A stretch of 22,744 nt of DNA, taken from Candidatus Woesearchaeota archaeon (lineage in GTDB: Archaea > Nanobdellota > Nanobdellia > Woesearchaeales > UBA10216). Numbering within the stretch: position 1 is the first letter of the stretch; every line of letters begins with the position of its first letter. The notes beneath the pieces are model-generated. The model was not told the DNA's origin. It worked only from the letters and a program-made list of their open reading frames with translations, and made no database searches. Shown piece by piece: positions 1 through 9,311 of the stretch. Where the stretch lies: the NCBI GenBank assembly GCA_016180085.1, contig JACPBX010000032.1:1-22744 (forward strand). Reading direction: 5' to 3'. Both the position numbers and the translations under genes were made by a program.

Positions 1-2
1 GC

Positions 3-92
3 ATACTGAAAACGCTCAAAAGCAAGCTCAAGCTTACACCGATAGGGCAAAGGCAACTGGAATGGCAAACAGAACGGAAGGAAAAATACTGA
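3..92 (+). CDS. Possible 3' end of an upstream gene running in from the window edge (ILKTLKSKLKLTPIGQRQLEWQTERKEKY*), perhaps a Hef/FANCM-type helicase
   Basis: Frame 3 is open from base 3 to TGA at 90-92 and overlaps the ERCC4 ORF start by 31 nt. Only 29 codons are visible, and frame 2 is also open to the edge, so the assignment is weak. Confidence 0.3.
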   Translation: MLKTLKSKLKLTPIGQRQLEWQTERKEKY

Positions 93-727
93 TATTAGCT
101 GACGTAAGGGAAAAGCATTCCGGCGTGGTCAAAGCGCTTTACGATGAAGGCGCGCTGATAGAGCTCAAAGCCCTTCCGATCGGGGACTTCCTTTGCAGCA
201 GCAGGGTGGCTGTTGAGCTAAAACGCCCAGGGGACTTTGTAAATTCAATAATAGACGGGAGGCTGCTTCAGCAGCTAAGGGAGCTCAAGGAGAACTTTGA
301 GAAGCCCGTGCTTATGATAGAAGGGAACGAGGAACAGGACCTGTACTCAATAAGAAACGTCCATCCAAACGCCATAAGGGGAATGCTGGCAGCAATAGCG
401 GTAAGCTACGGGATACCGATAATCCACTCAAAAAATCCGAAAGACACGGCAGGGCTTCTTGTTGCAATAGCAAAAAGGGAAAAAGACTCTGATGCCCCGC
501 AGCCATCGCTGCATCCCCAAAAGCCAGTAACGCTCTCGCAGCAGCAGGAATACGTCATAGCCTCCCTGCCGGGGATAGAAACAAAGCTTGCGAAGTCGCT
601 GCTGCAAAAGTTCGGCTCTGTAACTGAAATAATGAACGCGAGCGAGGAACAGCTCCAGAAGGTTGAGCTGATAGGGCCAAAGAAGGCCGCGGAGATAAGG
701 AAAGTTATTGAAGCAGAATACAGGTGA
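62..727 (+). CDS. ERCC4/XPF-family structure-specific nuclease with C-terminal HhH2 domain (nuclease part of Hef)
   Basis: Motifs D.RE, GDF...VELK...DF..SI.DGRL..Q...L, LMIEG, and HhH segments SLPGIETKLAKSLLQKFGS and KVELIGPKKA. The canonical ERK motif reads ELK here. Confidence 0.9.
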   Translation: MANRTEGKILILADVREKHSGVVKALYDEGALIELKALPIGDFLCSSRVAVELKRPGDFVNSIIDGRLLQQLRELKENFEKPVLMIEGNEEQDLYSIRNVHPNAIRGMLAAIAVSYGIPIIHSKNPKDTAGLLVAIAKREKDSDAPQPSLHPQKPVTLSQQQEYVIASLPGIETKLAKSLLQKFGSVTEIMNASEEQLQKVELIGPKKAAEIRKVIEAEYR

Positions 728-733
728 AAAGCG

Positions 734-1333
734 GTGTTGTATTACCTAAAGCCGGCTTTCAGGAGGTTTTTGAGTCCTCTTAAGATGACATTAATTAAGC
801 TTCATGCAAGCCCAAATACTGTAACGTATGCCGGCTTTTTTGTATCGGTTGTTATTAGCATTATCCTTTACGAGTCAAAAAACAGCAATGCGTTACTGCT
901 GCTAATACCAGTGCTTTCATTTGCAAAACTGGCCTTGAATGCCTTGGATGGAATGTTGGCTGAAGCGTACGGATCTGCAACAAAGTTCGGAGGGGTTCTC
1001 AACGAATTTTTCGACAGGCTCTCCGACACGGCAATATTTGTGGGGCTCTCGCTAATGGAAGGCGTAAAAACTGAGCTGGGCCTAATTGCAGCTTTGACAG
1101 TCCTTTTGACAAGCTACACAGGCATTGTTGGGAAAGCTTTTGGCGGTAGCAGAAAGCATAGCGGGATAATGGGAAAGACTGAAAGGATGGCTTTCCTGGC
1201 AACAACAGCGTTGATAGTCTACTTTACGAAAATGCCTGATTTGTGGAATTACCTCCTCTACTTTATAATAGCTGGCTGCACAATAACAATCGGGTTGAGA
1301 TTTTACGCTATAAGGAGAGAACTTTCAAAATGA
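734..1333 (+). CDS. CDP-alcohol phosphatidyltransferase, YnbA-like subfamily
   Basis: NALDGMLAE...G..LNE..DRLSD variant of the CDP-alcohol phosphotransferase motif; N-terminal Y.LKP.F...L.P and PN.VT; hydrophobic. GTG start. Confidence 0.88.
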   Translation: MLYYLKPAFRRFLSPLKMTLIKLHASPNTVTYAGFFVSVVISIILYESKNSNALLLLIPVLSFAKLALNALDGMLAEAYGSATKFGGVLNEFFDRLSDTAIFVGLSLMEGVKTELGLIAALTVLLTSYTGIVGKAFGGSRKHSGIMGKTERMAFLATTALIVYFTKMPDLWNYLLYFIIAGCTITIGLRFYAIRRELSK

Positions 1334-2262
1334 CGATTCAGTTCCATGGTCTTTGGCAACCTTTTATTTTGCGGGAAGCAGTTCAATATTTCATTGGAGT
1401 TTTCGTTATCTTTACAATAGGACTCTTTGGAATTTTGCTAGTGCGAAAAGGAAAAACAAGGACAAATCTATTTGAGATATACCGCACGTGGATAATAATG
1501 GCCATAGTTTATTCTGCTTCAATAATGCTTGGCAAACTGGTTTTTTTTGCTTTACTCGTCGTTATAGCTTCGAGAGGCGTGTCAGAATTCTTCCTCGCAG
1601 CGAGAATAGGGAAAAGCTATTTCGTTCTGACGCTAATCGCAGCCGTCGCGTCCATGGTTACAGCGCTATCATCAGAAAGGCTATTCTTTTACACACCAAT
1701 AATCTTTTTTTTAGCTGCGGTTGCATTGTCAATATTCGCATTTGATGCGAAAAAACAGCTAGGCAATGCTGCGTTAGCATTGTTTGCATTTATGTGGCTT
1801 CCATTTCAGCTTGGCTTTCTACTCATATTGACAAAGAATAGCCAGTGGCAGGCAATTCTTCTCGCTACAGCAACAGCCATAGCGCTAAATGACGTCTTTT
1901 CTTACGTTACAGGCAAACTTATGAGCTCCATTGGAATAAATCAGGGAAAAATAGCTGGAAAGATTAGCACAAATAAAACGTGGCTGGGAGCTGCGGGAGG
2001 ATTTTTGGGTGCTTTACTGGGACTGCTTATAATGGCTCTGTTGCTCCTTGACCTGTCCTTGGCAAAAATATTCGCCATAGCTGCCTCAATAGCCGTGTTT
2101 TGCAACATAGGCGGCTTTGTCAACTCGTTTGTTAAAAGAAATTTAGGAATAAAAGACTTTCCGAAGCTTCTGCCTGGCCATGGGGGAATTATAGACAGGA
2201 TTGACAGCCTCGCCACAACGGCCGTGTGCCTTTACTTTTTGCAACTTGCAGGAATACTTTAG
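1330..2262 (+). CDS. Phosphatidate cytidylyltransferase (CdsA/YnbB-like, CTP_transf_1)
   Basis: ND...Y..GK, IS.NKTW.G..GG, S.VKR.LGIKD...LLPGHGGIIDRIDSL. Start moved from 1243 to ATG 1330, which overlaps the upstream TGA (ATGA coupling). Confidence 0.9.
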   Translation: MTIQFHGLWQPFILREAVQYFIGVFVIFTIGLFGILLVRKGKTRTNLFEIYRTWIIMAIVYSASIMLGKLVFFALLVVIASRGVSEFFLAARIGKSYFVLTLIAAVASMVTALSSERLFFYTPIIFFLAAVALSIFAFDAKKQLGNAALALFAFMWLPFQLGFLLILTKNSQWQAILLATATAIALNDVFSYVTGKLMSSIGINQGKIAGKISTNKTWLGAAGGFLGALLGLLIMALLLLDLSLAKIFAIAASIAVFCNIGGFVNSFVKRNLGIKDFPKLLPGHGGIIDRIDSLATTAVCLYFLQLAGIL

Positions 2263-2269
2263 AGACCCA

Positions 2270-2629
2270 TTATACATCAAGAAGGGCTACAGCAATGGCG
2301 TAATCTCCTTCATGGGCAATACTGCACTCGCACAGCCTTACCTTATGCGTTAACTTATTTAAGACTTTAATAACAGGCTTTCCGTGATTATTTTTCAAAA
2401 TCCTGACATGATGCCAGGCAATTTTGCTGCCATAGGCTTTGACAAAAGCCTCCTTGACGGCAAAAAACCCTGCAAGGCTTTCATACCTTCTTACAGGGCC
2501 TTTACTGCCAAATTGCAGAAGCTCTTCCTCTGCAAAAAGCACATTGATCGAGGCAGGTGTTCTGGAAAGAACTTTTTGAAAGCGAGAGATATTGACCAGG
2601 TCAATACCAATTTTCAGCAAACAAAGCAC
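2270..2629 (-). CDS. acpS: Holo-[acyl-carrier-protein] synthase (AcpS-type phosphopantetheinyl transferase)
   Basis: IGIDLV..RF, LAG.FAVKEAFVKA, HGKP, SIAHEGDYAIAV. The true start may be TTG at 2620, 6 nt after GAGGTG. Confidence 0.92.
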   Translation of the reverse strand: MLCLLKIGIDLVNISRFQKVLSRTPASINVLFAEEELLQFGSKGPVRRYESLAGFFAVKEAFVKAYGSKIAWHHVRILKNNHGKPVIKVLNKLTHKVRLCECSIAHEGDYAIAVALLDV

Positions 2630-2638
2630 CTCACAAAA

Positions 2639-3055
2639 CTATCTAAGCCTGAGCACTTCCATTAAGTCAATAAGCTGAGTTGGAGGACTTATAGTAATTG
2701 CTAGCAGAACCATTATTGGAGTAAGCAGGAGGTACCAGCAAAGGAAATACATAAAGAGCCTTCTGGGCCTGCTTTTTATAAGGGCCACTTTCCTCATGTA
2801 AAACAATGCCCAGACCCAAACCGGGAATGCAATCATTATCAGGGCATGCGCCATGTTAATAGGCCCCAAAATCGGGGTTAGGAATAAAAGATTGCCACTG
2901 TTAACGGCAAAATAGCCAAGCCAAGGGAACAGCTTTACCATAAATGCCAAAACAAACATGCGCTTGGATTCACCAGCATAATTTGGTTTGGGTGCAGTCT
3001 TAATTTCACTCAGTTTTGCTTCTGATTTCTTCCTAATCTGTTTTTGCTTTTTCAT
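2639..3055 (-). CDS. Uncharacterised membrane protein, paralogous to the C-terminal domain of the 3065-3895 product
   Basis: Basic N-tail followed by about 3 hydrophobic segments; tightly spaced within the minus-strand run (9-nt gaps). Confidence 0.75.
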   Translation of the reverse strand: MKKQKQIRKKSEAKLSEIKTAPKPNYAGESKRMFVLAFMVKLFPWLGYFAVNSGNLLFLTPILGPINMAHALIMIAFPVWVWALFYMRKVALIKSRPRRLFMYFLCWYLLLTPIMVLLAITISPPTQLIDLMEVLRLR

Positions 3056-3064
3056 TCACAAACC

Positions 3065-3895
3065 TCAGATGCTAAATTGTGGACCGAATTTAAGCGCGAC
3101 AATTACCATTGGAGGCGTTAGCACAAGATACCAGCAGACAAAATAAAGAGCTTTCCTGGCTGCCGCATTTTTGATTTTATGAATAAAGGGCAGGGCTATG
3201 GCGGCCGATATCCATACGGGAAAAGCTCCGGTTATAAGAAGGTGAAGCATATTTAAGGGAAAAAGGAACGGCATTTGGATAATCCAGAAAAAGAATGGAA
3301 ACAGCTTTATGCCAAAAGCCAAGACAAGCATAGAAAAGCTTTCAGAGCCGGAAGCTTCTGGAGCTGGCAGCGACAAAGAAACTTCCTTCTTGTCAAGTCC
3401 GTGCTGAACTGCTTTTTGGCTGTAAAAGTCCAACCTTTTTGAAAATTCTTGGGAAGACATTGCGGGAGAGCCTTGAGAAGGGAAAGGGTTTGTAACTTCC
3501 GAGAAGAACTCATTAACAGAGTTAGTACGTGAAGAGAATGCCAGGATGATTGAAGAAGCAAGCAGCAGAAAGCCTAGAATAATTTGAACGGGTCCAAGAA
3601 AAATCAGCTGGCCATAATACCCGCTGAAGTAGTGCCCTGCCGCAGAGTAGAAAAGGAAAACCATTGAAAAAAGGATAGAAAGTATATAACCAAACTTTTG
3701 GTTTTTAATTATTAGGAAAAGGGGAATAACCCACAGCACCGGTGAAAGGGCACGCATTAAGTGTATGCCGCTCAATGAAGGGCCGCTGCTAAGCTGGAGG
3801 TAAATCTGAGGCAGGAAAAGCAGCAACCTGAGCAGGATGAACATTACAAATAGCTTGTTTAAAAGATTTAGCAATGGCTTATCATCCTCGCCCAT
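3065..3895 (-). CDS. Uncharacterised two-domain polytopic membrane protein
   Basis: About 4 N-terminal TM segments, a soluble linker, then a C-terminal ~88-aa domain alignable to the 2639-3055 product. Confidence 0.75.
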   Translation of the reverse strand: MGEDDKPLLNLLNKLFVMFILLRLLLFLPQIYLQLSSGPSLSGIHLMRALSPVLWVIPLFLIIKNQKFGYILSILFSMVFLFYSAAGHYFSGYYGQLIFLGPVQIILGFLLLASSIILAFSSRTNSVNEFFSEVTNPFPSQGSPAMSSQEFSKRLDFYSQKAVQHGLDKKEVSLSLPAPEASGSESFSMLVLAFGIKLFPFFFWIIQMPFLFPLNMLHLLITGAFPVWISAAIALPFIHKIKNAAARKALYFVCWYLVLTPPMVIVALKFGPQFSI

Positions 3896-3907
3896 CTTGA
3901 TTTACTC

Positions 3908-4675
3908 TCAAATAAGGAATTTAAAAAACTTTGCAAAACTGACCGCTTCCAGAGAGCTGGAAGGAACAAGTGAGGAAACCTCAAAAAGGATATAAGCAAA
4001 AAATGCCATGTAAACAAAAATCAGCAACAGGTAAGTCAGAGGGCGATGATAAAGCTTGCCAAGCAAACCAAAAAGAAACCACCCTATTGAATAGAAGACG
4101 GCATAAAACACCAGAAGCCTGAAAAGCCTCACTACCAGAGATATCAGAAGAAAAATCGGCAGATTGAGGTGTTTCTGACCGGCTGTGTAGGCAAAGACCT
4201 TGAAAGGCACATTAGTGAATGGGTGGTTCACGGTTTGCCAAGCATCCTTGCTAGCGTAGAGTTTATCAGTATATTCTATCATAGGACTAGTTATAAAAGG
4301 GGATGATGAAAGAATATTTGTTGCTGCTACAGGAGATATATGACCAACGGAGTATGCTATAAAACCGCCTACAAGCGTGCCAAGAACAACAAACAGAGGA
4401 AGCTTAAAGTTGATACGCCTGGGAATAAAAACGGCTGCAAAAATAACCAAGAAATCAGGGAAAACATACCAGTACACTGCTTCGGCTGCGGCCCACACTG
4501 AAACGAAAACAGCGCCATCCCTTGATTTGAAAAAAGAGTTAAAGAAAGAAGGACTGATACCTGCCAGCTGATGTAACCCTTTAATTTTTTTAGTTATAAG
4601 TGCAAACGAGAGGAAAAGCAAAGTAACTGGCAAGACAACCAGGACTATCGCGAGTAAGAGACTTGGCACGTTCAT
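3908..4675 (-). CDS. DedA/YqaA (VTT, SNARE-associated) family membrane protein
   Basis: WAAAEA..W.V.PD, LGTLVGGFIAY.VG, PF..VPFKVF...AG, F...S...R.FR pattern. Its ATG overlaps the upstream TGA (4672-4675). Confidence 0.75.
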   Translation of the reverse strand: MNVPSLLLAIVLVVLPVTLLFLSFALITKKIKGLHQLAGISPSFFNSFFKSRDGAVFVSVWAAAEAVYWYVFPDFLVIFAAVFIPRRINFKLPLFVVLGTLVGGFIAYSVGHISPVAATNILSSSPFITSPMIEYTDKLYASKDAWQTVNHPFTNVPFKVFAYTAGQKHLNLPIFLLISLVVRLFRLLVFYAVFYSIGWFLFGLLGKLYHRPLTYLLLIFVYMAFFAYILFEVSSLVPSSSLEAVSFAKFFKFLI

Positions 4676-5556
4676 AGCGACCTTACCACTTTTTCAATTT
4701 CATTAGTAATTCTCCTGTAATCAGAGCGATTGCCAAAAATAACAGGCTTGCCGAAGGTTACTGACACAACCCCATATTTTGGCATCACACTCCCCTTAGG
4801 CAATATTGAGTCTGTCCCTCGAATCCTGACTGGAACCACAGCAACATTCAACTTGGAAACTAGAAAGCCTATACCAGGCTTAAACCTTTGAATTTTCCCA
4901 TTCTGACTACGGCTGCCTTCAGGGTAAAATAAAACGTGCCATCCTTCATTAATGAGCTTTGCTGTCCGATGCAGGCTTGTGTAAGAATTTTTCCGTGAGA
5001 AAGGGTACGCGTTCACTAATAGGGAAATAAATGAACCAAAAAAGGGGTTTCTGTACATGTAATCCTCAGCTGCAGCTACTGCCGTTCTTTTCCGAAAACT
5101 GCCGGGCAGGCTTGCAAGAATGGCTACCGTGTCAAGGTGGCTTGAATGGTTGGCAACAAAAATAACAGGTTGGCCTTTTGGAATAATCTGGAGAGCTTCT
5201 TTGTTAGTTGTGAGAACTTTCATTAAAAATCCAGCCAAAAAGAAAACGGTCCTTTGCAGGATAAAGCGGGCTGGTAATGCCATTGAACTGTGACACCACG
5301 CCCACACATACCGTTCTTTTTGCTTGCTACCAAATGGCAACTCCAAAAGCCGGGCAAGATCTCCAACTGAGGTGAATTTATTAATACGCCTCTCATCTAT
5401 CAAATTCCCAAATTCCTGCTCAATCCGGGCAACAAGCTCAATCCTATGCAGGGAATCCATTCCTAAATCGTTAACAAGAGAAGCTCTAGACTTGATTCTC
5501 CTGGCAGGAACTTCAAGAATCTGGGTCAAGATTCTACGCAATCTTCTGTTCTGCAT
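4672..5556 (-). CDS. Fusion of acyl carrier protein (N-terminal) and PlsC-like lysophospholipid acyltransferase (C-terminal)
   Basis: ACP motif LGMDSL...EL...IEQEFG with the phosphopantetheine Ser; acyltransferase blocks NHSSHLD, PFSR, YPEGSRS, FKPG, VPV.I.G. Confidence 0.92.
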   Translation of the reverse strand: MQNRRLRRILTQILEVPARRIKSRASLVNDLGMDSLHRIELVARIEQEFGNLIDERRINKFTSVGDLARLLELPFGSKQKERYVWAWCHSSMALPARFILQRTVFFLAGFLMKVLTTNKEALQIIPKGQPVIFVANHSSHLDTVAILASLPGSFRKRTAVAAAEDYMYRNPFFGSFISLLVNAYPFSRKNSYTSLHRTAKLINEGWHVLFYPEGSRSQNGKIQRFKPGIGFLVSKLNVAVVPVRIRGTDSILPKGSVMPKYGVVSVTFGKPVIFGNRSDYRRITNEIEKVVRSL

Positions 5557-5586
5557 TTTAATAAGGAAATAGCAAGTTTTAATTAG

Positions 5587-5600
5587 TTTATATATTTAAC
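5587..5600. promoter_or_regulatory. Candidate bidirectional TATA region between the ACP-acyltransferase operon and the NlpC/P60 pair
   Basis: TTTATATATTTAAC lies in a 63-nt AT-rich gap, about 20-30 nt from both start codons (5556 and 5620). Confidence 0.55.
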
Positions 5601-5619
5601 ACTACAATAGAAACAAAAA

Positions 5620-6204
5620 ATGGGTGACCTGGGCAGTTTAGTGAAAAAACTGGTGGAAGGAGATATACTTGTGGTGAGTGAGAGAGGGCTGAAGCACGCC
5701 GTAAACAGGTTTTTTGGCAGGAGCAAGTGGCACCACGTAATGCTATACATAGGCAAAGGCAAAGTCCTCGAGGTAACTCCGAGGAAAGGCTGCCACATAT
5801 CAAAGCTGGACCTGGCAAGGGGCAGCTACAAGGCATACAAGGCTGTAAGATGCAGGAAGCTTGCTGCTGAAACAAGGAGGAAAATAGCTGCGGCAGCAGT
5901 TAAACTGTTCCTGGGCAAAAAGTTCGACTGGAAACAACTGGTTAAAGTCTTTTCCAGAAGACTCTTGGACTGGAAAGGCAATAAAAGCCGTGTGGAGAAG
6001 CACGGATACGGAAACGATATTAAAGGCCTTATCTGCTCAAACCTTGTTGCAATAACATACCACATGACAGGCCATGCCATTGGCAGCAAGTGGGCACCGG
6101 AGTACATAATGCCAAGGGACTACGACATGCTGGGAACGGCTGGCGGGTTTGAAGTGGTGTTTGAAAGAAGGCTGGAAAGCGGAAGGGGCAAAAATGCGGC
6201 TTAG
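5620..6204 (+). CDS. Permuted papain-like NlpC/P60 enzyme (YiiX/YebB-like), copy 1
   Basis: GDILVV...SKWHHVMLYIG (His) precedes LICSNLV (Cys), the permuted His-then-Cys order; G..FDW; ends P.DY. Confidence 0.82.
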   Translation: MGDLGSLVKKLVEGDILVVSERGLKHAVNRFFGRSKWHHVMLYIGKGKVLEVTPRKGCHISKLDLARGSYKAYKAVRCRKLAAETRRKIAAAAVKLFLGKKFDWKQLVKVFSRRLLDWKGNKSRVEKHGYGNDIKGLICSNLVAITYHMTGHAIGSKWAPEYIMPRDYDMLGTAGGFEVVFERRLESGRGKNAA

Positions 6205-6784
6205 ACCTGAAATGAAAAGGCTGAGAGACGCCCACAACATCCTCAAAAGGCTTCGGGAAGCAGACATCATCCTCGTAAGCGAGAAAGGGCTGCTACATGA
6301 CATCAACAGGATGCTGCAAAGGAGCAAGTGGCACCACGTAATGCTATATATCGGGAATGGCCGCACAATCGAAGCCACCCCGAAAAAAGGCGCCCACATA
6401 TGCGACCTCATGTATGACCTGACAGAAAAGGAATACTTTGCCTACAAAGTCCTAAGGAATAAAAGGCTCACCAAAGCGCAAAGAAAGAAAGTGGTCAGCA
6501 TGGCACTGAAATTCTTTCTTGGCAAAAAGTTCTCCTGGGGGCAATACGCCAGAATCGTGCTTGGAAGGACGCTGCACTGGAGAAACGAGGGAAACAAAAG
6601 CCTCGTATGCAAACCTGGGCACAGGTGCAGCATGGAAAACGTGGCATGCTCCAACATGGTGGCAATGGCATATTACGAGGCTGGCCTGCCTGTAACCGAG
6701 CGCTACATGCCCGAGTACGTTGTGCCAAAGGACTATGAAACGTCAAAGGCGCTTTCCGTAGTTTCTGAAGGCAGAATAAAATGA
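6194..6784 (+). CDS. Permuted papain-like NlpC/P60 enzyme (YiiX/YebB-like), copy 2
   Basis: ADIILV...SKWHHVMLYIG, LGKKFSW, ACSNMVAMAY...G, VPKDY. Start moved from 6149 to ATG 6194, overlapping the end of copy 1. Confidence 0.82.
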   Translation: MRLRPEMKRLRDAHNILKRLREADIILVSEKGLLHDINRMLQRSKWHHVMLYIGNGRTIEATPKKGAHICDLMYDLTEKEYFAYKVLRNKRLTKAQRKKVVSMALKFFLGKKFSWGQYARIVLGRTLHWRNEGNKSLVCKPGHRCSMENVACSNMVAMAYYEAGLPVTERYMPEYVVPKDYETSKALSVVSEGRIK

Positions 6785-6998
6785 TGCAGAACTATCAGAA
6801 ACAGATTGATGAACTGTTGAAGCAGTACAGCTGATAAAGGTTTTAAAAATGGCACAAATAAGATTCTAAGCACTACAACCAAAGAGTTTACTGTGAGCTA
6901 AACTTTAATTAGAATTTCATACTCCTAATGCAAAACAGTTCAAGGTTGTGGTTCAGAGGAGGCTACTCTGAAAACTTCGCCACACCCATACTTATTTA

Positions 6999-8207
6999 TT
7001 ACATTATTGGGTTGCCGCGGCACGACTGTAACCCTAATTTTCGTCGTTCAAGGTATGTTGGTTCATGTAAAAGTTTATATAAGTCGTTCATCGTTATGTA
7101 ATCCCAAATGTGCGATATTCCGAATTCTTTTCTGATGTCTTTGCCACTCGGATAATGCCCGCTTGAGATTTCTTTTTTCATATAAGTCAGAATATTTTCA
7201 ATAGCGGCTCTGAAAAGGCATTGGTCGAGTTTAGGGTTTCTTCTTCCTCCAATTTTATTCAATGGAGGAATTATGTTGGCTTCCTTGTAAATATCCAAAA
7301 CAGATTTAAAATAAGACCTAGTGTCTAACTTTAAAGCCTTATTTATGTCATGAACGTACACTTCTCTTCCTTTAATTAAATTTTCTTTAAGGTAGTCTAC
7401 GATGAGCTTTTTCTTTCTTACTTTTTCATCAGTTTCTTCATGGACTGAGGAGTCTCTTATATATTGAATTTTTTCGATTTGATCATTGCTTAAAAGCGGG
7501 AGCACATCTTCATAGAGCTTAATGCTGATACCACTAACGCCGCTAATTTTACTCTCTATCTTTGATGTTGTGGTCATTAGAATAATTTCGTGAAATCCTT
7601 GCTTAAGAAACTGTTGAAGTTGTTCAACATTCTTCTTTTTAATAGGCTCGTATTTGTTGAAGGCTTTAAGTTCTACTCCAATTAATCTTTCATTAGTATC
7701 TAAAGCAACCATATCAACGCCTTGCTCATGAATATCATTTATTTCTAATATGCTGAGATCTAACTTATAAAGAACGTCTGCAATTAGTTTGGTAAAGATT
7801 AAAGCTTTGTTACCTTTTAGGTCCTGACTATTTTTCTGTATGTATTTAATACCGGCCTGCAAATAAAATTCTTTAATACTTCTAAAGTAAGTATCCAATC
7901 TTAATTTGAATTTTTGTTCTATAAATCTTCTTGAAGGGTAATGACCTTTTTTGACCTCATTTTTCAAATAATTCAGAAGGTCTTTTCTTACGTGAACATT
8001 TAATTGTTTAGACCTGTGACGGGGGAACTTCAAAAAATCGACATTCAATTGCGAATAGATATCTTCCATATAAATGCCTTTTTGAAAGGCAAACTTAGTT
8101 CTAAGTTCTCTACAAGTTGGAAGATTGCCTTCTTTTACTCTACTTTTGACATAATCTACTATTTTCCGTTTAATTTCTGCCGAACAATTTTTTTCCATTT
8201 TCTTCAT
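6999..8207 (-). CDS. Mrr-like PD-(D/E)XK restriction-endonuclease-fold protein flanked by four helical repeats
   Basis: Central GVD-x13-ELK...V.QL...IILMTTS resembles the Mrr catalytic domain; two ~48-aa repeats lie on each side; AT-rich (hand counts of 30% GC on lines 7321 and 7681). Confidence 0.7.
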   Translation of the reverse strand: MKKMEKNCSAEIKRKIVDYVKSRVKEGNLPTCRELRTKFAFQKGIYMEDIYSQLNVDFLKFPRHRSKQLNVHVRKDLLNYLKNEVKKGHYPSRRFIEQKFKLRLDTYFRSIKEFYLQAGIKYIQKNSQDLKGNKALIFTKLIADVLYKLDLSILEINDIHEQGVDMVALDTNERLIGVELKAFNKYEPIKKKNVEQLQQFLKQGFHEIILMTTTSKIESKISGVSGISIKLYEDVLPLLSNDQIEKIQYIRDSSVHEETDEKVRKKKLIVDYLKENLIKGREVYVHDINKALKLDTRSYFKSVLDIYKEANIIPPLNKIGGRRNPKLDQCLFRAAIENILTYMKKEISSGHYPSGKDIRKEFGISHIWDYITMNDLYKLLHEPTYLERRKLGLQSCRGNPIM

Positions 8208-8215
8208 CTCTGAAA

Positions 8216-8368
8216 CCTCAATCTAACGTTGAAATTTCTCACGCTTCTAACTGAGAAATCTCTCGTTTAGTGAGGAGGACGCTGAGCGAAGCTGCCTAAT
8301 TGCTTTTAGGCGTTAGCCGACCCTGCTTTGCAGGGGAAAAGCATAATTTGGCAGCTCTGCGGTCCTCC
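8216..8368 (-). ncRNA. Candidate structured RNA / 5' leader of the nuclease gene (unknown family)
   Basis: Nested stems 8274-80/8362-68, 8291-96/8350-55, 8301-07/8337-43, 8309-11/8316-18, 8321-26/8330-35, plus a second hairpin with 8234-41/8252-59. A minus-strand TATATAAA lies at 8396-8389. Confidence 0.5.
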
Positions 8369-8388
8369 GAGCCTTTATGAAGAAGTAG

Positions 8389-8396
8389 TTTATATA
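8389..8396 (-). promoter_or_regulatory. TATA box driving the structured leader and nuclease gene
   Basis: TATATAAA on the minus strand, 21 nt upstream of the first base of the terminal GGAGGAC stem. Confidence 0.55.
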
Positions 8397-8411
8397 CCCT
8401 CGCCGGGCACC

Positions 8412-8427
8412 TGTCCAGTGTCCAGTG
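8412..8427 (-). repeat. CACTGGA heptamer tandem motif (CACTGGACACTGGACA)
   Basis: 15/16 identical to 11157-11172 on the plus strand. Confidence 0.7.
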
Positions 8428-8453
8428 CTAATTACAAAAAAAATGTAAAAAAT

Positions 8454-9311
8454 TCAAAATTTCATTTCTTTTAGTCTTTTAATGCGAATATCAAGTGGGG
8501 GGTGCGTTGAAAACAACGATATTAAGCCATGCCCCTTCAATGGGTTTACAATAAACAGGCTTGCTGTTGCCTCGTTGCCCATGCCCATTTTGTGATGCAG
8601 GGCTGCCTTGTCAAGCTTGGCCAGGGCAGAAGCCAAAGGCTCTCCATCCTTTATCGTTGTTGCGCCGCTGTGGTCCGCAAGGAACTCCCTTGACCTTGAG
8701 ATGGCAAGCTGCAAAATCATGGCTATAATTGGGGTAATTATCGCGAGGGCAAGAAGTGCGATGGCATTGCTACCTCCCCTGTTGTCATCGCGCCTGCCGC
8801 CACCAAATATCGCGGCAAACTGGGCCATGTGGGCCAGGTAAGAGATGACGCCAGCTATTGTTGCTGCAATTGTTGTGACAAGAATATCCCTGTTCTTTAC
8901 ATGACTGATTTCATGGGCAATAACGCCTTTAAGCTCCTTATCTGTGAGAAGCTTCATGATGCCCTCTGTGCAGGCAACAGCAGCATGCTTCGGACTGCGG
9001 CCAGTTGCAAACGCATTGGCAGCCTCTGTTGGAATAATATAGACCTTTGGCTTAGGAATGTTTGCAGCTGCAACTACCTCGTCAACGATTTTGTGAAGAT
9101 GAGCATAAGATTTTTTGTCAGCAGGCTTTGCCCTGTACATTGCCAAAACAATCTTGTCAGAGAACCAGTAAGCCCCAAAGTTCATAAGGACTGAGAAGAT
9201 AAGGGCAACAAACAGCCCGGTCTGGCCGCCAATCAGCCTGCCAACTACCAAAAGCAGACCTGTAAGCAAGCCAAGCAGCAGCACTGTCTTTATCTGGTTA
9301 CCAAAACCCAT
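8454..9311 (-). CDS. htpX: Protease HtpX (M48 zinc metalloprotease)
   Basis: NAFATGR.P..A.V..T.G, HEISH (HExxH), ISRSREFLAD, LFSTHPP...RI. Confidence 0.96.
   Translation of the reverse strand: MGFGNQIKTVLLLGLLTGLLLVVGRLIGGQTGLFVALIFSVLMNFGAYWFSDKIVLAMYRAKPADKKSYAHLHKIVDEVVAAANIPKPKVYIIPTEAANAFATGRSPKHAAVACTEGIMKLLTDKELKGVIAHEISHVKNRDILVTTIAATIAGVISYLAHMAQFAAIFGGGRRDDNRGGSNAIALLALAIITPIIAMILQLAISRSREFLADHSGATTIKDGEPLASALAKLDKAALHHKMGMGNEATASLFIVNPLKGHGLISLFSTHPPLDIRIKRLKEMKF

Follow-up and report, generated by a model that had tools for sequence, protein, structure and literature searches.

Two described bacterial systems offer points of comparison for the locus reported here. In Escherichia coli, YnbB of the ynbABCD operon makes both CDP-diacylglycerol (CDP-DAG) and N-acetylglucosamine-pyrophosphate-diacylglycerol (GlcNAc-PP-DAG) and cannot replace CdsA (PMC6362211), and in the LplT-Aas system of the same organism, a flipped lysophospholipid is re-acylated from acyl carrier protein (ACP) (PMC11416262). 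For archaea, homologues of PlsC and PlsY in DPANN, Marine Group II (MG-II) and Asgard bins have been read as horizontal acquisitions (Coleman et al. 2019, PMC6431249), and some Fab genes have been reported in DPANN (PMC10936187). Here, we describe a seven-gene island (positions 730-5609) on contig JACPBX010000032.1 of a groundwater Candidatus Woesearchaeota archaeon (assembly GCA_016180085.1). The window, that is, the whole stretch of 22,744 nucleotides analysed, is an entire contig of a genome of approximately 1.0 Mb (45 contigs, 82.8% complete), so gene absences from this genome are provisional. We read the island as a streamlined archaeal version of the bacterial ynbA-ynbB-acyltransferase(-DedA) module that, judging from the families of its genes, is predicted to salvage or remodel lipids from other cells, and we put the probability of this reading at roughly 0.55. 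An earlier note on this DNA, made from the letters alone, had singled out the cluster as a candidate for an undescribed system. This claim goes too far, as the island represents a variant form of a known bacterial module, ynb. PlsC-type genes in DPANN bins were already published (PMC6431249). New here are the presence in an archaeon of an entire ynb-type operon whose empty site survives in a sister genome, an AcpS of its own, loss of the adenylation domain, and two lineage-restricted membrane proteins.

An inserted island between archaeal genes

The surroundings of the island are archaeal: the window carries the informational genes ERCC4/XPF, TFE, primase, S13/S4/S11 and RpoD, and NCBI lists S11 and RpoD from genomes of the same genus under Candidatus Woesearchaeota, which bears out the DPANN-like host named in the earlier note. 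When compared by blastn with the same-genus genome G005, window positions 1-729 and 5610-6782 align to adjoining DNA at approximately 90-92% identity, and since these flanks form one unbroken stretch there, we place the limits of the island at 730 and 5609 (4,880 bp). In G005, 11 nt separate the XPF stop from the start of the first of two NlpC genes, and the order XPF-NlpC1-NlpC2 is also present in the same-genus genomes G003, G006 and G008. The NlpC/P60 (YaeF/YiiX-like) pair at 5620-6784 was considered as a part of the module or as its acyl donor and rejected, because it adjoins XPF in four relatives without the island and is thus an ancestral neighbor outside the module. In its composition, the island (42.3% GC) deviates from both the genome (48.7%) and the flanks (49-50%), lying in the 1st percentile of 4.88-kb windows genome-wide, and each of its seven genes falls between 41% and 44%. 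The spot counts by which the earlier note had contrasted the cluster with a ribosomal protein gene are exact for the 60-nt lines chosen (36.7%, 36.7% and 51.7%) but overstate the difference. Taken together, the sharply bounded insertion seen against four genomes of the same genus, the deviating GC content and the bacterial affinity of the nearest YnbA and YnbB relatives (see below) agree with the horizontal acquisition of a bacterial-type module that had been proposed, and recent gain of the island by horizontal transfer is well supported.

The lower GC content and the bacterial affinities would also fit an assembly or binning artefact in which bacterial DNA had been joined to an archaeal contig. 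However, both flanks are archaeal and continuous with the same-genus synteny, and Logan contigs assembled separately from the runs SRR12113431 (window 394-5715) and SRR12113383 (539-5715) cross both junctions at 100% identity. Since contigs from two runs span both junctions, a chimera is very unlikely, and we regard the probability of such an artefact as negligible. Two further runs yielded contigs that are 100% identical to parts of the island, and in a fifth there is a contig with the same gene layout. The junction-spanning contigs stop about 100 bp past the right edge of the island and 190-340 bp past the left, a short reach that may stem from a mixed population in which some strains carry the island and others do not.

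As for a mobile element that might have carried the island, no integrase and no match to phage, viral contigs or plasmids was found, and apart from a GAAA microhomology of 4-5 nt, the island ends are free of terminal repeats. The AT-rich spacer at 5557-5609 is borne by the island and absent from G005; from its sequence, it is a candidate two-way archaeal TATA/promoter region. A scan for sigma-70 promoters and terminators is uninformative for an archaeal host.

Gene content and predicted function

As described in the earlier note, the island holds seven intact genes in two convergent, tightly packed runs (734-5556), with intergenic gaps of -4 to 12 nt. The forward-strand run consists of ynbA and ynbB, which are adjacent, co-oriented and overlap by 4 nt. 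YnbA (734-1333; 199 aa) is an atypical CDP-alcohol phosphatidyltransferase (PF01066, 36.7 bits) that shares 32% identity with E. coli YnbA over 177 of its 199 residues (E 6e-27). Beginning at residue 69, it carries the motif N-x2-D-G-x2-A-x9-G-x3-N-E-x2-D-x3-D, in which N69, D72, G73, A76, G86, N90, E91, D94 and D98 are conserved across 11 sequences. This differs from the canonical motif D-x2-DG-x2-AR...G-x3-D-x3-D: of the four Asp positions of CDP-alcohol transferases, the first and third are occupied by Asn throughout the YnbA family, and the motif Arg is a Glu here. Because the Asn residues are conserved across the family, we regard them as a family trait and not as decay. Against the archaetidylinositol-phosphate and phosphatidylinositol-phosphate synthase models, YnbA stays below the cut-offs, at 111 versus 180 bits and 79 versus 170 bits, respectively. 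YnbB (1330-2262, forward strand; 310 aa), a cytidylyltransferase of the YnbB/CdsA family (PF01148, CTP_transf_1; 138 bits against a cut-off of 24), probably starts at ATG 1330 and not at GTG 1243, since the former overlaps the ynbA stop by 4 nt and yields a length of 310 aa that fits the bacterial counterparts. It is 28% identical over 272 aa to the YnbB of an Omnitrophota operon discussed below and retains, at residue 266, the C-terminal CdsA signature S-x2-KR...KD...HGG-x2-DR-x-D, while its score on the CdsA equivalog NF008635 is 59.9 bits against a cut-off of 385.

The reverse-strand run holds the remaining five genes. At 4672-5556, it encodes a 294-aa ACP-acyltransferase fusion without an adenylation domain (PF00550, 46.1 bits, cut-off 20.8; PF01553, 80.3 bits). 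The ACP domain has its DSL motif at residue 34, so that the serine is residue 35, and the acyltransferase blocks NHSSHLD, FSR, PEGSRS and VPV lie at residues 136, 186, 212 and 241. The score on the PlsC subfamily TIGR00530 is 61.4 bits, below the cut-off of 102.95, and the protein begins at the ACP domain, which sets it apart from the Aas type. AcpS, the holo-ACP synthase (2270-2629), exceeds the cut-offs of both TIGR00516 (64.2 versus 59.8) and PF01648 (51.8 versus 25), its translation contains the motifs IGIDL, with the conserved Asp near the N terminus, and VKEAFVKA, with KEA, and it is 33% identical to the AcpS located beside an adenylation-ACP-acyltransferase (tri-domain) gene in the same-genus genome G007. 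The 255-aa membrane protein encoded at 3908-4675 is probably a divergent member of the DedA/VTT family. Its earlier assignment as DedA finds no direct Pfam match even at E 10 and is supported only by way of PF09335 (VTT/DedA) intermediates: one of these, from the Omnitrophota operon, is 27% identical to it (E 4e-13), and the distant matches that it has in DPANN likewise belong to PF09335. The other labels of the earlier note, namely PlsC, CdsA and CDP-alcohol transferase, hold at the level of the broad families PF01553, PF01148 and PF01066, but not at that of the PlsC and CdsA cut-offs or of the canonical CDP-alcohol transferase motif. Degeneration of the catalytic residues, which would have spoken against an active module, is not seen, the ACP serine, the acyltransferase blocks, the AcpS Asp and KEA, and the CdsA signature all being intact.

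These families suggest a sequence of steps. AcpS would furnish the ACP domain of the fusion with phosphopantetheine, no other client being visible for it in the genome, and the fused acyltransferase, which is of the lysophospholipid acyltransferase (LPLAT) type, would move the ACP-borne acyl chain to a lyso-glycerolipid such as lysophosphatidate (lyso-PA). YnbB, with CTP, would activate the resulting phosphatidate (PA) to CDP-DAG, and YnbA would pass the phosphatidyl group to a polar acceptor. DedA/VTT proteins scramble or flip lipids, and the putative member encoded here may translocate either the lipid or the lyso precursor. We thus infer from family membership the route proposed in the earlier note, from lyso-PA via PA and CDP-DAG to phospholipid, for which an ester-linked or hybrid lipid product is plausible.

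The lipid genes found elsewhere in the genome bear on the source of the substrates. In the 82.8%-complete assembly, tblastn recovered none of PlsX, FabH, FabD, FabZ and FabI, and we found no AMP-binding gene (PF00501), no PlsY, no N-terminal domain of GpsA, no CarS or GGGPS and, overall, no complete bacterial glycerolipid pathway (GpsA, PlsX/PlsY and type II fatty acid synthesis). Present are two UbiA genes, a second small acyltransferase, a FabF-like ketoacyl synthase and two FabG-like short-chain dehydrogenases/reductases, and there is a single copy each of a PP-binding domain (in the island fusion), a CDP-OH transferase (YnbA) and a CTP_transf_1 gene. Since no acyl-activating enzyme, glycerol-phosphate acyltransferase or complete fatty acid synthesis was found, salvage of foreign lipids is most likely, rather than de novo synthesis. 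The suggestion of scavenged lipids in the earlier note is thereby strengthened by the lack of PlsX/PlsY, GpsA, CarS, GGGPS and an acyl-activating enzyme, to the extent that these provisional absences hold. As the fusion contains the sole PP-binding domain of the genome, it is this domain that AcpS would serve, and a sole client explains why a carrier-protein-dependent module that enters a lineage lacking fatty acid synthesis needs an AcpS of its own. The lone FabF-like synthase (contig C14, 11941-13203) is 40% identical to E. coli FabF, contains PF00109 and PF02801, and lies beside ribosomal protein genes; it is patchily distributed, occurring in 7 of the 60 genomes searched including this one, and its carrier could only be the island ACP domain. 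The two FabG-like genes are located on contigs C41 and C22.

The two remaining reverse-strand genes encode orphan membrane proteins, one of 138 aa (2639-3055) with about three transmembrane (TM) helices by hydropathy and one of 276 aa (3065-3895) with 4+3 TM helices. The smaller is a paralogue of the C-terminal domain of the larger, with 43% identity across a shared domain of approximately 100 aa. Neither matches Pfam or any other family, the 138-aa protein has no NCBIfam match either, and an exhaustive profile search of 1.84 billion representative proteins with the 276-aa protein returned only itself and its paralogue. An atlas search with both orphans gave nothing above 0.78, a comparison with plasmids gave no match, and the single-sequence AlphaFold model of the 276-aa protein (pLDDT 59, pTM 0.30) is not usable. 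The orphans occur only in the version of the module that lacks the adenylation domain, and no similarity links them to the EamA-like protein (115 aa) encoded in the Omnitrophota operon. Their role may be to deliver the acyl or lyso-lipid substrate or to present it. It is tempting to speculate that they take the place of the lost adenylation domain, forming a loader within the membrane by which acyl chains would pass directly from the phospholipids of a neighbor onto the ACP arm; we consider this a slim prospect, but if true, a lipid-auxotrophic DPANN archaeon would make ester-linked or hybrid phospholipids by a self-contained, ATP-independent salvage.

The bacterial parent module and the origin of the island

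To characterize the parent module, we surveyed the best 80 YnbA loci among 185,579 species, each represented by a single genome; all 80 loci are bacterial. YnbB is a neighbor in 74 of these 80 loci, an LPLAT-type acyltransferase in 55, YnbC (a Hydrolase_4 lipase plus Methyltransf_20) in 51 and YnbD (a PAP2-like domain plus a dual-specificity phosphatase, DSP) in 42, and the commonest order is ynbA-ynbB-acyltransferase-ynbC-ynbD. Rarer neighbors are an adenylation domain (7/80), ACP (5/80) and DedA (5/80), which appear in variants with an adenylation-ACP-acyltransferase fusion or with an acyltransferase and DedA. One such variant, the Omnitrophota operon, comprises tri-domain, YnbA, YnbB, EamA-like, VTT and hydrolase genes. 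The E. coli ynbA-ynbB pair therefore belongs to a broad bacterial module that normally includes an acyltransferase together with YnbC and YnbD or with DedA, and the comparison provides a testable framework for these little-studied genes. In E. coli K-12 ynbABCD (L018, 7622-12202), the acyltransferase of approximately 214 aa that separates ynbB from ynbC in Citrobacter, Serratia, Snodgrassella and others is missing. In the Omnitrophota operon, a 115-aa EamA-like half transporter with four TM helices lies between YnbB and DedA (L029, 4965-5312) as a second flippase-like partner. On a high-GC bacterial contig, the protein P0123 (L016, 1568-2713), whose gene follows those for YnbA- and YnbB-like proteins and precedes one for a methyltransferase, is an acyltransferase fused to a DedA-like domain, a fusion that links both activities.

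The nearest relatives of the island proteins point in the same direction. The best named relatives of YnbA, at 44-48% identity, come from Omnitrophota and Bipolaricaulia. In a tree rooted on E. coli CdsA, YnbB clusters with YnbB-type proteins and groups with the tri-domain-linked YnbBs of Omnitrophota, Bipolaricaulia and Obscuribacterales (SH-aLRT 95). A search of 59 related genomes from the order returned neither YnbA nor YnbB. The same seven-gene order, again without an adenylation domain, is present on a 5.4-kb metagenome contig (ERZ27297570, SRR14366766) at 45-53% protein identity, and it is with the counterpart on this contig, P0002, that the acyltransferase forms its only firm pairing; otherwise, it falls just outside a clade of adenylation-ACP-acyltransferase proteins from Woesearchaeota, with weak deep support. 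Genes of the island thus also co-occur elsewhere, both in this contig and, as ynbA-ynbB-acyltransferase(-DedA) operons, in many bacteria. Further seven-gene copies were found neither in JGI metagenomes, queried with the DedA-like protein and the ACP-acyltransferase, nor in 300 genomes sampled from the phylum.

The view taken in the earlier note that ACP and AcpS are exceptional for archaea does not hold in this order: AcpS is present in 10 of the 60 genomes searched (this genome and 59 relatives), mostly beside an adenylation-ACP-acyltransferase gene. In Woesearchaeota of the same genus or order (G007 contig C13, L011, 7836-10633; also G001, G009, G025 and G043), AcpS directly adjoins an 820-865-aa protein with AMP-binding, ACP and acyltransferase domains. 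A 2021 survey did not find FAAL-like (fatty acyl-AMP ligase-like) domains in archaea (PMC8460268). Given that the island spacer resembles an archaeal TATA region and that the P0002 copy shows the layout to be old, the module, although presumably bacterial in its ultimate origin, may have come directly from another archaeon.

Apart from the island, window positions 6783-8490 form a second insertion relative to G005, with a 402-aa gene in a stretch of 34.8% GC for which the sister genome offers no alignment. Genome-wide, GC is lowest on contig C22 at 64500-71500 (37-41%), probably another foreign island.

Alternative readings and relation to known systems

Several observations weigh against a salvage or remodeling module of the ynb type. 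No enzyme that could load the ACP (AMP-binding, PlsX, FabD or FabH) was found in the incomplete genome, nor were PlsY and GpsA; YnbC and YnbD, the partners in most bacterial operons, are missing from the island; and, with Asn residues at two of the four canonical Asp sites, the chemistry of YnbA may be something other than ordinary alcohol phosphatidyl transfer. In addition, the YnbB branch is very long (4.6 changes per site), and the acyltransferase domain stands apart from the ynb-linked tri-domain acyltransferases, if with weak support, for which reason the island may be of mosaic origin.

In one rival reading, the module would make an MPIase-type, pyrophosphate-linked glycolipid anchor (sugar-PP-diacylglycerol) instead of bulk phospholipid, with YnbB and YnbA coupling CDP-DAG to a sugar-1-phosphate and DedA flipping the product. 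E. coli YnbB raises MPIase levels, has been assigned GlcNAc-PP-DAG synthesis together with CdsA and cannot support bulk phospholipid synthesis (PMC6362211), the Asp-to-Asn changes in YnbA fit a non-standard acceptor, and the bacterial operons include flippase-like partners (DedA and the EamA-like half transporter). We nevertheless consider this unlikely: the island contains no glycosyltransferase or sugar-phosphate gene, the studies of the E. coli operon cover YnbB alone and not YnbA (PMC6362211), and the common partners YnbD (PAP2 and DSP phosphatase) and YnbC (lipase and methyltransferase) better fit a phosphatidyl-X-phosphate route. Alternatively, the island might act on archaeal isoprenoid lipids, YnbB replacing CarS and YnbA serving as a counterpart of archaetidylinositol-phosphate synthase, with archaetidic acid scavenged as its substrate. 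Here, the missing CarS and GGGPS, the position of YnbA as the sole CDP-OH transferase of the genome, its best NCBIfam match (archaetidylinositol phosphate synthase) and a weak CarS-like match of the YnbB counterpart on the P0002 contig are set against the shortfall of that 111-bit match from its 180-bit cut-off, the bacterial relationships of YnbA and YnbB, without which the 59 related archaea manage, and the ACP-acyltransferase and AcpS, which make sense only for acyl chains. On balance, this appears improbable to us. The island could also be recently landed cargo that is decaying and has little or no function in its host, as its restriction to one species among those searched, the missing acyl loader, the very long YnbB branch and a composition that has not drifted toward the host genome would suggest. 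However, all seven frames are open with their catalytic motifs intact, and matches at 100% identity recur in contigs of four runs (two of them in part), with the same layout in a fifth. Moreover, the layout without an adenylation domain persists on the second contig at only 45-53% protein identity, which argues for long purifying selection on the seven-gene arrangement and makes nonfunctional cargo quite unlikely.

We therefore return to the streamlined ynb-type salvage module and compare it with the systems it most resembles. With E. coli ynbABCD and the fuller ynbA-ynbB-acyltransferase-ynbC-ynbD operons of Citrobacter, Serratia and Snodgrassella, the island shares the YnbA motif N..DG...NE..D...D and an overlapping adjacent YnbB and, with the fuller operons, an LPLAT-type acyltransferase. 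It differs from all of these operons in lacking YnbC and YnbD, in an acyltransferase that bears ACP, in the addition of AcpS, a DedA-like protein and the two orphans, and in its archaeal host. The operon of Omnitrophota, Bipolaricaulia and Obscuribacterales contains the nearest relatives of YnbA and YnbB and likewise has an ACP-bearing acyltransferase; its DedA/VTT partner probably corresponds to the divergent 255-aa protein. The island, in turn, is without the adenylation (AMP-binding) domain, has AcpS and the two orphans instead, and is arranged in two convergent runs. With LplT-Aas of Gram-negative bacteria (PMC11416262), the common logic is a membrane lipid transporter paired with an ACP-dependent LPLAT-type acyltransferase that re-acylates lysolipids, and the island acyltransferase matches the NCBIfam family acyl-[ACP]--phospholipid O-acyltransferase (E 7e-16), although far below its equivalog cut-off. 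Unlike Aas, the island has no acyl-ACP synthetase domain and its putative transporter is of the DedA type instead of the major facilitator superfamily type of LplT, while it adds a CdsA-like and CDP-alcohol-transferase-like pair that Aas lacks.

In the context of the membrane lipid supply of host-dependent archaea and the permeability of the "lipid divide," the island offers a clean, datable entry of a whole bacterial acyl-lipid operon into a DPANN archaeon, with the empty site preserved in a sister genome. In contrast to the isolated PlsC and PlsY homologues of Coleman et al., it is a whole co-transferred operon with a datable insertion site, in which a carrier protein is accompanied by its activating enzyme.

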